NCBI RefSeq assembly: GCF_003790525.1
Contig: NZ_CP033635.1
Length of the DNA stretch: 64,000 nucleotides
Origin: Escherichia coli
Lineage (GTDB): Bacteria; Pseudomonadota; Gammaproteobacteria; Enterobacterales; Enterobacteriaceae
Reading direction: 5' to 3' (one strand)
Positions 1 to 6,000 of this stretch are shown here, in pieces. Position numbers: made by a program. Each line of letters begins with the position of its first letter. Position 1 is the first letter of the stretch.

Positions 1-3000
1 CACCGGAATGCCGCCAAGCTTGCTGGTCAGGAATGCCGCCATTGGCTCTTCCAGTACATCCTGTTTATTACCAAAACCGCCACCGACAAACGGTTTGATG
101 ACTCGTACGCATGACCAGGGAATATCCAGCGCCTGACCAACCACGCGGCGAACAATGTGCGGGATCTGGGTGCTGGAAACGATGGTAATTCGCGAGTCAT
201 CCTCCATCCATGCCAGCGATGTCACGCTTTCCATGTGACAATGTTGAATAACGGGAGTCTGATAGTGCCCCTGAACCTGGTAGTCGGCGGCATCGATTGT
301 TTGTTGGACATTGCCCGTCGACATCGTGCTTTGTTTTAGTAAATTGCCGCCGTTATGGATTGGTTCAGCGTCATCAGCCAGCGCCGCTTCTGGGGTGGTG
401 ATAACGGGTAATTCTTGCCACTCAATGCTGACCAATTGCGCCGCTTTTTCTGCCGTGAGTTCATCACGGGCCACGACGATGGCAACGGCGTCACCATGGT
501 GACGAACATGGCGAGTTAGCAGTGCGCGATCGGCGGTATCGCGCTTGTTTTCGTCAAGTGTCCAGGCATGCCCAGCTGTAGCGAATGGGATATCAGGCAC
601 ATCTTCCCAGGTAAAAATCGCCAGTACGCCCGGTAAACTTCTGGCTTGTTCATCATTAATACTTACGGCATAACCATGTGCGATAGGGCTACGTACATAT
701 TTCGCGTAACACATGCCCGCCATAACATAATCGTCAGTATATCGTGCCCGCCCGGTGACCTTAGCAATGGCATCTACGCGCATGCATGATTCACCTGTAG
801 CGGTTGCTTCCCGCGCTTCCATAGAAATCCCCTCGATTTGAACATTTGGTTCTTATGGCAAAGATTTAGTCTAAGCAGGCAAGATTTACGCCAGAAACGA
901 CGATAAGCGTTAAGGGAGGAAGGAAGTGTGATGATGTTAAAAAAACACAGATATGATACGAAACAGGACCCTGAATAGGGGCAGTGATACGTATCAATAT
1001 GAGTGGCGATAAAATCAATGTGATAAATTGGGATTATTACGCATCAGGATGGGAAATAGGGTAAATGAGTCAGGAAATTCGATACATCTACAGTGAATAT
1101 TTTGCTGATGATACTTCCCTTTGCCAAATGAAATTAACCTCTTTCTCTATTACCGCGTTTTTCCAGAAGCAAGAGATTGGGTATCAAGAGGCTGGCTGCT
1201 ATGATATGGCGTCTTGTTTTTTAAGCGAGGAAAGATTTTGAGTGCGGGACGCCTGAATAAAAAATCTCTGGGTATCGTGATGTTGTTATCGGTTGGACTG
1301 CTTTTGGCGGGCTGCTCGGGTAGCAAATCATCCGATACAGGAACGTATTCCGGCTCCGTTTACACCGTGAAACGGGGGGATACGCTATATCGTATTTCGC
1401 GCACCACGGGAACCAGCGTAAAAGAGCTGGCGCGACTGAACGGCATTTCCCCCCCTTACACCATTGAAGTTGGTCAGAAACTAAAACTGGGTGGGGCGAA
1501 AAGTAGCAGTACACGTAAATCAACCGCCAAATCAACGACCAAAACCGCATCGGTTACACCGTCATCAGCGGTACCGAAATCTTCCTGGCCGCCAGTAGGG
1601 CAACGTTGTTGGTTATGGCCAACGACAGGGAAAGTTATCATGCCGTATTCGACAGCAGATGGCGGCAATAAAGGGATTGATATCTCAGCTCCACGAGGTA
1701 CACCTATTTACGCCGCGGGTGCAGGAAAGGTGGTGTATGTGGGCAACCAGCTGCGTGGCTACGGTAATCTCATCATGATTAAACACAGTGAAGATTACAT
1801 TACGGCTTACGCCCATAATGACACGATGCTGGTAAATAATGGGCAAAGCGTGAAGGCTGGGCAAAAAATCGCCACTATGGGGAGCACTGATGCGGCATCT
1901 GTTCGCCTACATTTCCAGATTCGTTACCGTGCAACGGCAATTGATCCGCTACGTTACTTGCCGCCTCAGGGCAGCAAGCCAAAATGCTGATGGCGAATTA
2001 ATCAGCAGTCAGCAGCGCGGCACTTGCTAAGGAGAGCGTAAGGTTTATAATGCCTTACGCATCTCGAAGCGGGCGTAGTTCAATGGTAGAACGAGAGCTT
2101 CCCAAGCTCTATACGAGGGTTCGATTCCCTTCGCCCGCTCCAATTTATCTTCACCTCATCAATCTGCCATTTTTGCTGTATCTGATTTTCTATATTATCT
2201 TAATTCAATTGCTTCAGACTTTTCGCAATCGCTGTAACACTTCCCCATTTTTTTGTAAATAAAAAGCGTTTACGCAATGCAATCCTTTTGTAACAACCCA
2301 GGTAAAATACCTTATTTTCAAGTTGTTAAATAAGTGGTTATCTACGCTTTTAACAAACGATTGATGGAATCTTTTATGAAAGGGAAATCTACATTAACTC
2401 TTCTGCTCGCTGGTATATTTTCGTGCGGCACATGCCAGGCGACAGGGGCAGAAGTGACGAGTGAATCTGTATTTAACATTCTTAATTCCACGGGGGCAGC
2501 AACTGATAAAAGTTATTTATCGTTAAATCCAGATAAGTATCCTAATTATCGTCTTCTGATTCACTCAGCCAAATTAAAAAATGAAATAAAGAGCCACTAT
2601 ACCAAAGACGAAATTCAAGGATTGTTAACATTAACAGAAAATACACGAAAGTTAACGTTGACGGAGAAACCCTGGGGAACATTTATTCTTGCTTCTACTT
2701 TCGAAGATGACAAAACAGCGGCAGAAACCCACTATGATGCTGTCTGGCTGAGGGATAGTTTATGGGGCTATATGGCATTAGTATCAGATCAGGGAAATAG
2801 TGTAGCAGCAAAAAAGGTTCTGCTCACTCTGTGGGATTATATGTCTACGCCCGACCAGATTAAGCGGATGCAGGACGTCATTAGCAACCCAAAACGACTG
2901 GATGGTATTCCTGGGCAAATGAATGCTGTACATATCCGATTTGACAGCAACTCCCCCGTTGATGGCAGATGTGCAGGAAGAAGGCAAGCCGCAGCTGTGG

Positions 3001-6000
3001 AACCATAAACAAAATGATGCGTTAGGTCTTTATCTTGATCTCCTTATACAAGCAATCGACACTGGTACTATTAACGCTGAAGATTGGCAAAAAGGTGACC
3101 GATTAAAATCGGTTGCGCTGCTGATTGCTTATCTGGATAAAGCCAATTTCTATATTATGGAAGATTCCGGAGCGTGGGAAGAAGATGCCCGATTAAACAC
3201 ATCTTCCGTTGCACTGGTGACCTCTGGACTGGAACGTTTGTCAAACCTACTCTCGAAGAAAGACTCTGTTTTTGTCTCTGATTTACTACGCGAAGCTAAA
3301 GCCAATGAACTGGATGCAACTTTTTCAACAACGAGGTTGAACCACCTCATAGATAAAGGTTATGAAAGAATAACGTTACAGCTTGATTTAGGGGGAGAAT
3401 CCCCAGGTTATCTGGAAAAAGATAAACATTACAGAGAAGCCGATGCGGCTTTACTTAATGTTATTTATCCTGCAAATCTTTCAAAGATAAATACCAGAAG
3501 AAAAGAGCAAGTTCTAAAAATAGTTAAAAAACTAGCAGGTCCGTATGGTATAAAAAGATACGAGAAGGATAATTATCAGTCGGCAAATTTTTGGTTCAAT
3601 GATATTAAAACCGATACCGATCAAAATTCACATGCGAAAAGAGAAATGAGCTTCATTCCATCAACAGAAGCAGAATGGTTTTTTGACTCATGGTATGCAA
3701 AATCAGCAGCAATTGTTTATAAAGAATCAAGAAAAGAAGAGTATTTGAATGACTCTGTGCAATTTATGAATAGATCATTGGCCCAAATAACAGGCGAGAA
3801 TATGATTGGTGCAAATGGCAGGAGTGTACCTGAAATGGCACTTCCCGAAAGCTATAACTATATCCACAAGTCGGGAACTTTGCATGAAGCGCCAAGCCCT
3901 ATCATTCCGCTAAATTGGTCGAAAGCTTCAATGACTCTCATGTTGAAAGAGATGTCCAACCTTATCAATGATGAGGGAAATAAATAGTTTTCATAATGAG
4001 GCGGTCCTGGATTAAAAGGACCGCTCAAAGAGAAATCGAAAGGGGAGGTAAAAGTGATCAATAAATTACTGTTAGCTTACCTGATAGGTCTGGTTGTGAC
4101 ATCGACCTTAATATTTATCTTCTCGGAAGAAAAAGTAACATATCGGTTGTTTGCTGCAGCAATTACAGGGTTGACCTGGCCGCTTAGCCTCATTCCATCC
4201 ATCATAAGTCTCATGATTCGTAAATCCGACTAGCAAGAAAATTATATGATCGATTAAGAAAAATAGAATCGAACAAGAGAATAAAATATATGCGGGGAGT
4301 AACAAAACACTCGCAGTGCGTTAATGAAGAACTAACAAATATGATTTGTATTGAAAATAGTTATCAAACAAGTGTTATAAGAAATACGGGGTATGTTTAA
4401 GTAAAACATATCAACAGTTGCAATTCTGTATATGGACAGGATGACTTACTACTGTAAGTAGTTGATAGCTATTCGCTCATAACAAAATCATTATTTTATA
4501 AATAGGAATCATCACTTTTTAATCATGTTTTTATAGCAAGTTTATGGAGAATGAGAATATGGAATAAGGAGATGAAACATGATTGAAGAAGGGCTGTTAC
4601 TTCCAATGAATGTTTTGCTTCAAGGACAGAAGTTAACCCTACTGGACCCTGAAATGTGGTTCTTACGGGGAAATGAAAACAAGGATGTAACCCTTGTTAT
4701 TACGATCGGTAATAACCATCAAAAATTAATGGTAGTGGAAGATATATTACTGCTCATTGACCGAAGCCAAATTGAGGTAACTGCAGGGAAAGTAATTTAT
4801 CATCCACTTCGCATTGATATCCTGAGTAAATTATTAGCTTTTATAGATGAATCAACGGGGAGTGTGGAAAGGGAGCACCATGAGTTGTTTGCTGATGCCT
4901 TGCCCTTTGCATCAGAAGTTGTGCTATTCAGTAAAGTTGCAAGTGAAGCCTGGTTTTTAGCCACTTATCTGAGCAGCGATAATATTAATGAAATTCTGTT
5001 TCAGCATCTAAGAAAAACAGAATGCTATAAACTGGTTCGCTATTTATTATCGCAATCGCTCATACAGACTTCACTCTATGATCTTGGTGAGCTTTACGGC
5101 GTATCGTATTCACATTTTCGCCGTTTATGTAGTTATGCATTGGGTGGTAAAGTTAAAACGGAATTATGTGGCTGGAGAGTTGCCAGAGCCGTGTTGGAAA
5201 TCATTGAAGGAAACAGTGATATGACAACTATTGCGCATAAATATGGCTACTCATCCTCATCACACTTTTCAGCCGAAGTAAAAAGCCGGTTAGGAAAAAC
5301 ACCGAGAGAACTATGTAAAAAGTTATGAAAATAAAATTACGTATTACTATTATATTAATTTCAGCCTTATGCATTTTTAATGGATTATTGACTCCTGGTG
5401 CATATGCCGCAACAGCGAATGGATACGTAGCAAATAAAGAAAATCTACGTAGTTTTTTTGAAACGGTTTCATCATATGCGGGTAAGCCTACAATAGTAAG
5501 TAAGCTTGCCATGAAGAAACAGATCAGCGGAAATTTTGATTTAACCGAACCCTATGCCTTGATTGAACGCCTGTCGGCGCAGATGGGACTTATTTGGTAC
5601 GATGATGGCAAAGCTATTTATATCTATGACTCATCAGAGATGCGTAATGCGCTGATTAATCTGAGAAAGGTATCGACGAATGAATTTAATAATTTCTTAA
5701 AAAAATCGGGTCTGTATAACTCTCGTTATGAAATTAAAGGGGGCGGCAATGGTACTTTCTATGTTTCAGGGCCACCGGTGTATGTTGACCTGGTCGTTAA
5801 TGCTGCAAAATTGATGGAGCAAAACAGCGATGGCATTGAGATCGGTCGCAATAAAGTAGGAATAATTCATCTGGTCAACACATTCGTTAATGACCGGACT
5901 TATGAGTTACGTGGCGAAAAGATAGTTATTCCGGGCATGGCAAAAGTACTATCGACATTGTTAAATAATAACATTAAACAAAGCACAGGAGTGAACGTAC

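Follow-up and report, generated by a model that had tools for sequence, protein, structure and literature searches.

The window analysed here, a stretch of 64,000 nucleotides from Escherichia coli (contig NZ_CP033635.1 of assembly GCF_003790525.1), contains beside a tRNA gene two open reading frames that overlap in different frames. This arrangement raised the question of whether the two ORFs are halves of a single gene and, if so, whether that gene was broken by a mutation in the strain or by an error in its sequence.

Two overlapping reading frames of one gene

The features of the locus, with their coordinates in the window, are as follows.

2069..2142, + strand: tRNA-Gly gene (anticodon CCC), glyU, landmark of the ETT2 island edge (found by ARAGORN; annotated as tRNA-Gly in relatives)
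2376..3987, + strand: whole frameshifted GH15-like gene of the ygeQ / EC042_3075 family (identified by its repaired product and Pfam match)
2376..3008, + strand: N-terminal fragment, native residues 1-195 followed by 15 out-of-frame residues (DGRCAGRRQAAAVEP) and TAA
2953..2957, + strand: C5 run, wild-type sequence within codons Ser193-Pro194 (the same in aligned relatives)
2959..2960, + strand: lesion, TT in place of a single T, a +1 insertion that turns codon 195 from GTG into GTT+G
2962..3987, + strand: C-terminal part in the shifted frame, native residues 196-536

ORF1 extends over 2334..3008 in frame 0, with the start annotated by RefSeq in relatives at ATG 2376, and ORF2 over 2923..3987 in frame 1, where the mechanically assigned start (ATG 2923) leaves the first 13 codons out of frame. 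Their overlap at 2923..3008 measures exactly 86 nt, in agreement with the first-pass annotation. The frame of ORF2 is closed upstream by TGA at 2920-2922 and that of ORF1 by TAA at 3006-3008, so that the overlap is the entire zone where a +1 shift could join the two. The frameshifted gene comprises 1612 nt here, as against 1611 nt (536 codons and a stop) in intact relatives.

Deletion of one T at 2959 yielded a product of 536 amino acids that is 100% identical to WP_024175775.1, named 'glycoside hydrolase family 15 protein' in RefSeq. Both ORFs matched this protein end to end, as well as homologues of 500-560 amino acids from other genera. In alignments with 12 homologues (from E. albertii, Yersinia, Commensalibacter, Elusimicrobiota and others), ORF1 corresponded to residues 1-195 and ORF2 to residues 196-536, and the out-of-frame tails of both did not align. 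The N-terminal fragment carries a signal sequence and the motifs WLRD and HIRFD, while the C-terminal part holds WNHKQNDALG, GAWEE, GGESP and EAEWFFDSW. ORF1 and ORF2 are thus almost certainly one gene, split by the insertion of one T. That they might be unrelated or independently functional genes which merely overlap has nothing in its favour except that both are open reading frames, and it is so improbable that it can be set aside: removing one T restores a known protein exactly, the homologues in other phyla are single proteins of 500-560 amino acids, the predicted (alpha/alpha)6-type barrel runs over both halves, and the Pfam match crosses the junction. The identity of the repaired product and the homologue alignment refuted this reading.

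The first-pass annotation had taken the ORFs for halves of one GH15-like gene, exported and lying by the tRNA at an island edge, with a frameshift in the overlap. The alignments bore this out and showed the shift to be +1, and its own test, that the two ORFs might turn out on alignment to be unrelated proteins, ended with both aligning to one protein. The export signal was located on ORF1, and the expected length of about 550 amino acids was corrected to 536. By the annotation of relatives, the order at the locus is actS, tRNA-Gly, the GH15-like gene, a GhoT/OrtT-like ORF, eivF and sctC; the tRNA-Gly(CCC) adjoins the gene, and eivF, sctC and others follow downstream in sequence-identical relatives. 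Passages in two articles (PMC11068852, PMC2808357) place ETT2 next to glyU. The gene lies in the interval from glyU to eivF, where the type III secretion island ETT2 of E. coli has its edge.

Site of the insertion and its predicted consequences

Over positions 2300-4000, the only difference from strain TUM1586 was one extra T at 2959. Alignment of the two halves to an intact homologue, as had been recommended, located the shift at 2959/2960 in codon 195, where T becomes TT two bases downstream of the C5 run. This run had been regarded as the most plausible slip site. It is present at 2953-2957 within the overlap as described, but five C's are also the wild-type state in every intact relative aligned (TUM1586, e1-39, CUVET17-1418, a K-12-like strain and O27:H7), and the same run occurs in CM2 and O157:H7, whose copies of the gene are broken at other positions. 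The C5 run was consequently rejected as the slip site, because relatives with an intact gene carry it too. The lesion does not lie in a homopolymer of any length, which removes the chief reason for suspecting a homopolymer sequencing error, as had been suggested earlier. A phase-variable homopolymer switch was also discarded, given that the C5 tract is invariant in all aligned lineages and that the change from one T to two lies outside it and was seen once. As a matter of method, the shift did not coincide with the closest homopolymer, and only alignment to an intact allele reveals this.

Translation from ATG 2376 would give residues 1-195, then 15 wrong residues, and would stop at TAA 3006-3008. 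The C5 run two bases upstream of the lesion is wild type and had no part in it. Residues 196-536, including the invariant GAWEE motif, would end up in the +1 frame, where by eye neither an obvious Shine-Dalgarno sequence before them nor a signal sequence appears to be present. Because the shift leaves the conserved WLRD motif and GAWEE on separate fragments, both fragments are expected to be inactive.

Activity could be retained in part by recoding, in which a +1 slippage of tRNA-Pro on CCC-G (2955-2958) would produce a full-length protein (...SNSP-LMADV...) altered only by V195L. Some exported V195L enzyme would then be made, and the gene would be weakened but not lost. The sequence does contain a CCC codon with G after it, one codon upstream of the insertion and inside the 86-nt overlap, and CCC-N is one of the contexts in which enterobacterial ribosomes slip +1 more readily. 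Nevertheless, recoding is very improbable. The frameshift is not conserved and the ORF is uninterrupted in every other genome and homologue, contrary to what a programmed event would show; GTT, the codon that follows, is not a stop codon and is not rare, no Shine-Dalgarno-like stimulator was found upstream, and any leakage would at best be background of well under 1%. A programmed +1 frameshift was rejected since the extra T occurs in none of 3,711 genomes and all aligned homologues are single ORFs.

Private allele: mutation or base-call error

The distribution of the allele was determined by exact-match searches covering 5,426 genomes. An 81-mer containing TT had no match in 3,712 genomes, a count to be read with the caveat that SNPs in other lineages could mask matches. 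A 69-mer containing TT was used to remove this caveat, its sequence being invariant in five aligned lineages save for a 5-nt deletion in O157:H7 strain 4276, and it was found in 0 of the 3,711 complete E. coli genomes carrying the stretch. The intact 80-mer, by comparison, was found exactly in 402 genomes. At the protein level, none of six possible truncated products (start and stop variants) occurred among about 15 billion proteins in an exact look-up, which is partly informative because NCBI's annotation pipeline records no pseudogene products; the repaired product was present on 357 contigs of the same collection. An IS2-in-yqeK junction in the window, at 26828, is common to seven complete genomes, and the extra T is in none of the seven. 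A shared or lineage-level allele was thus rejected, with no TT match in the 5,426 genomes.

The closest genomes in the RefSeq complete E. coli set were CUVET17-1418, e1-39, GN03551 and TUM1586. The extra T is the sole indel relative to CUVET17-1418 over 64,000 colinear bases (with 5 SNPs), and the sole indel relative to e1-39 over 62.7 kb (also with 5 SNPs), indicating an assembly that is not indel-prone. Two SNPs, at 29176 and 39336, are absent from both relatives, so that real divergence exists. The gene is intact in all nearest relatives checked except CM2, where it is IS-interrupted. With the allele found in no other genome, and with no second indel in 64 kb against the closest relative, the +1 T insertion is private to the genome studied.

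Comparison with other strains, which the first-pass annotation had called for, leaves both of its alternatives, pseudogene and sequencing error, still live. We regard it as rather probable that the gene, dispensable and part of a decaying island, recently lost its function through a real mutation: the insertion is the sole indel in 64 kb, its site is not a long homopolymer, and the gene has been repeatedly inactivated elsewhere. The extra T is absent from all of the nearest relatives, which are 99.99% identical across 64 kb, so such a mutation would have to be very recent. The same relatives also speak for a sequencing or assembly error, in which case the gene of the strain would be intact at 1611 nt, with the extra T a single miscall in the consensus. 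This is a possibility of appreciable but lower probability. An allele unique among 3,711 complete genomes, without a product among about 15 billion proteins, is also what an error would look like, and the site directly follows a C5G stretch, a context miscalled by some platforms. Against an error stand the single indel in 64 kb relative to the closest relative, which shows no systematic indel error, and the nature of the change, which from one T to two is not a long-homopolymer length error and leaves the C5 run itself correct. Moreover, one private indel together with two private SNPs forms an ordinary mutational spectrum, and the gene is demonstrably dispensable and often broken elsewhere. 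The locus is a known gene, here either disrupted as a commonplace pseudogene private to the strain or misread at a single base. The finding flags base 2959/2960 as one for the owners of the genome to check.

Comparison with ETT2 decay and with GH15 proteins

The same gene is often damaged in other strains: K-12-like genomes hold a truncated copy (71% coverage), O157:H7 strain 4276 carries the 5-nt deletion (annotated 'frameshifted' by PGAP), and in others IS2, IS3, IS421 or ISKpn26 has inserted into the gene. The lineage of the genome studied already has a frameshift in its YscQ-family gene and a split eivJ. Passages of the review PMC11068852 describe widespread deletion and frameshift in ETT2, for whose mutational attrition PMC2808357 cites Ren et al. 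(2004, J Bacteriol 186:3547). The frequent breakage of the gene in other strains fits this known attrition, and the insertion is comparable in being a point lesion that inactivates a gene of the ETT2 island. However, the lesions in the literature are shared by lineages, whereas the T insertion was seen in a single genome and, unlike them, could be an artefact. It matters little, being at most a further strain-private example of a well-documented decay. Compared with the ygeQ / EC042_3075 family, the gene occupies the same locus, is identical in sequence save for one base and has a repaired product that is 100% identical, and it differs by the private +1 T at codon 195, which is absent from all 3,711 complete genomes with this stretch.

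The repaired protein matched Pfam PF00723 over residues 94-415 (23.9 bits, gathering cut-off 22, E 2.3e-5); the fragments failed, with 19.9 bits for the C-terminal half and no match for the N-terminal half. NCBIfam held no specific model, only a sub-threshold oligosaccharide amylase match. An AlphaFold2 model of the protein (mean pLDDT 86.8, pTM 0.88) is predicted to have the (alpha/alpha)6-barrel catalytic fold of GH15, and its top Foldseek matches were GH15 or GH15-like chains (probability 1.00, E 4e-8 to 1e-3, TM-score about 0.5). The GAWEE motif, with W267-E268-E269, is invariant in 36 homologues, and so are E431 and E491. These glutamates are candidates for the catalytic residues of GH15, in which the general acid is the Glu of a WEE motif and the general base is a second Glu.

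The first-pass annotation had also called the protein a lipoprotein, which the sequence weakly supports: the PROSITE PS51257-style pattern matches MKGKSTLTLLLAGIFSC, with Cys17 as the putative lipidated residue, but the strict lipobox [LVI][ASTVI][GAS]C does not match, and by eye cleavage by signal peptidase I after CQA looks just as plausible. A search of the literature, including full text for ygeQ, returned no biochemical data on the subfamily and nothing informative on function; the GH15-like protein has been proposed as a potential ETT2 effector. The intact family is a conserved, signal-sequence-bearing and very divergent GH15-like group that may deserve a study of its own.

Among known structures, the model matches the GH15-like domain of phosphorylase kinase (PhK) beta, glycosidase 5z3a, the glucoamylases 1ayx, 6fhw and 1gah, and dextran dextrinase 9ju0. 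By sequence, PhK beta and alpha were the only PDB matches, and in both of them the counterpart of the GAWEE segment in the alignment is D-F-G-x-W-E. The relationship to GH15 and PhK is nonetheless very distant (11-17% identity, TM-score about 0.5), and the protein studied differs from GH15 glucoamylases and PhK in carrying an N-terminal Sec-type signal sequence.

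A GH15-like gene split by one extra base

The locus lies at the edge of the Escherichia coli ETT2 island, in the gene order actS (ygeR), tRNA-Gly(CCC), the GH15-like gene (ygeQ/EC042_3075 family), a GhoT/OrtT-like small ORF, eivF, sctC and the remaining ETT2 type III secretion island. As described in the first-pass annotation, two ORFs overlap here in different frames, with a C5 run inside the overlap:

Features of the split gene
2069-2142, tRNA-Gly(CCC)
2334..3008, + strand, ORF1 (N-terminal piece), frame 0, annotated start ATG at 2376
2920-2922, TGA closing the ORF2 frame upstream
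2923..3987, + strand, ORF2 (C-terminal piece), frame 1
2923..3008, overlap of ORF1 and ORF2, exactly 86 nt
2953-2957, C5 run
3006-3008, TAA closing the ORF1 frame

The GhoT/OrtT-like small ORF (59 aa, 4054-4233), which separates the GH15-like gene from eivF, matched Pfam Toxin_GhoT_OrtT (E 9.7e-12) and is labelled 'GhoT/OrtT family toxin' in relatives.

Of 5,426 complete E. coli genomes, 4,026 carried the locus in a megablast search with 2300-4000 as query. In the most similar of these, the 1,701-nt query aligned to 1,700 nt annotated as one 'glycoside hydrolase family 15 protein', and the sole difference from the close relative TUM1586 was one extra T at 2959 in the window. Deletion of this T gave a product of 536 aa with 100% identity to WP_024175775.1. 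Homologues, each 500-560 aa long and uninterrupted, were found among others in E. albertii (76% identity), Yersinia enterocolitica (60%), Commensalibacter, Elusimicrobiota, Bdellovibrionales and Bifidobacterium; in a joint alignment, residues 1-195 correspond to ORF1 and 196-536 to ORF2, while the out-of-frame tails of both ORFs have no counterpart. The joined protein also passed the Pfam GH15 profile (23.9 versus a gathering score of 22, residues 94-415), and the separate halves did not pass. The joint alignment, the single-protein homologues and the joined-only Pfam match rule out two unrelated proteins, and the two ORFs are one gene split by a frameshift, as had been proposed.

The C5 run had been put forward as the most plausible slip site, which proved incorrect. 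It encodes Ser193-Pro194 and is present in all seven strains compared (TUM1586, CM2, e1-39, CUVET17-1418, a K-12-like, an O27:H7 and an O157:H7 strain), which read ACTCCCCCG-TGATGG where the window has ACTCCCCCGTTGATGG. The lesion itself duplicates one T, giving TT at 2959/2960. Wild-type codons AAC TCC CCC GTG ATG GCA (N S P V M A) become GTT G|AT GGC from codon 195, so that V195 is retained and followed by 15 wrong residues (DGRCAGRRQAAAVEP) and the stop at 3006-3008.

Protein family and predicted effect of the lesion

The AlphaFold2 model of the intact protein (pLDDT 86.8, pTM 0.88) is a helical barrel, whose best PDB structure matches (probability 1.0, TM-score ~0.5) were the phosphorylase kinase beta GH15-like domain, glycosidase 5z3a, fungal and bacterial glucoamylases and dextran dextrinase; by sequence, PhK beta and alpha were the sole PDB hits. 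Motifs invariant in 36 homologues include W124-x-R126-D127, H186-x-R188-F189, W208-x-HKQNDA, G265-x-W267-E268-E269, GGESP and E431-x-x-WFFDSW. The codon 195 frameshift falls between HIRFD and WNHKQNDALG, and therefore places WLRD and GAWEE on separate fragments. Since the downstream fragment also lacks a signal sequence, and no Shine-Dalgarno was seen ahead of it, loss of function would be expected.

The intact N-terminus (2376-2441) is a Sec-type signal sequence, MKGKSTLTLLLAGIFSCGTCQA, which matched a PROSITE-style lipoprotein pattern with Cys17 and did not match the strict lipobox. In the EAEC 042 genome paper (PMC2808357), the orthologue EC042_3075 is described as glucoamylase-like and, tentatively, as a potential ETT2 effector; a Sec-type N-terminus would fit poorly with such a type III role. 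The Yersinia homologue (10001-11581 of its contig) lies ~10 kb from a gene with a T3SS tip-complex domain (PF06511, 21344-21581). The proximity may mean that the GH15-like gene accompanies Inv/Mxi/Spa-type secretion loci beyond a single genus, or it may be chance.

Distribution of the allele among relatives

Comparison with other strains, also suggested in the first-pass annotation, revealed the extra T nowhere else. An 81-mer bearing TT had no exact match among 3,712 locus-carrying genomes, while the repaired 80-mer was exact in 402, the others deviating by SNPs. A 69-mer (2931-2999), chosen for its invariance in five lineages except for a 5-nt deletion in O157:H7 strain 4276, matched exactly in 0 of 3,711 genomes, with a one-base gap in all best hits. 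None of six possible truncated products occurred among ~15 billion catalogued proteins, where the repaired protein was found on 357 contigs.

CUVET17-1418 was colinear with the window over all 64,000 nt, differing by 5 SNPs and the lesion as single indel; e1-39 differed by 5 SNPs, the lesion indel and one IS2 insertion. Neither strain shares the window's SNPs at 29176 and 39336, of which, by coordinate transfer, one lies in yqeI and one inside an IS4 copy. That IS4 (~38404-39750, transferred from L003 37067-38413) splits ygeA (amino acid racemase) and is common to the window, e1-39 and CUVET17-1418. The IS2 (1,331 bp, 26828-28158, InsC/InsD ORFs on the minus strand) is inserted in yqeK with a 5-bp target duplication, CAAAC (26823-26827 and 28159-28163). 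Its junction, which e1-39 lacks, is shared by seven complete genomes (isolates from chicken, human and dog), all without the extra T.

Origin of the extra base

The extra T is probably a real mutation in a dispensable gene. As the only indel in 64 kb, it indicates that the assembly is not indel-prone; its site has no long homopolymer, and given the two private SNPs, a single private indel fits an ordinary mutational spectrum. A singleton sequencing or base-call error is a possible, somewhat doubtful, explanation, consistent with the uniqueness of the allele, its absence from near-identical relatives and the C5G stretch directly before the site. Programmed +1 frameshifting and phase variation were both rejected, since the C5 tract does not vary and neither the other genomes nor the homologues carry the shift. 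Traces of a full-length V195L protein could in principle arise by background +1 slippage of tRNA-Pro at CCC-G (2955-2958), a speculative and very improbable reading.

Dispensability is plain from repeated breakage of the gene in other strains, in agreement with a real mutation. K-12-like genomes retain ygeQ in truncated form only, and IS insertions interrupt the gene in CM2, STEC308, EC22 and others. In O157:H7 strain 4276, an independent 5-nt deletion (ATCCG, window 2934-2938, ~20 nt upstream of the lesion) frameshifts the gene, which PGAP labels 'frameshifted'; PV15-279, and perhaps further O157:H7 genomes, do not have this deletion. The ETT2 of the window's own lineage was already damaged: at ~11981-13803 the SpaN/EivJ gene is fragmented, and sequence-identical relatives have their YscQ/HrcQ-family gene annotated as 'frameshifted'. 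Deletion and frameshift are known to be widespread in ETT2 (PMC11068852; Ren et al., 2004, cited in PMC2808357). The lesion is either an ordinary single-base change in a known gene at the ETT2 edge that is often inactivated, or a singleton error in base calling.
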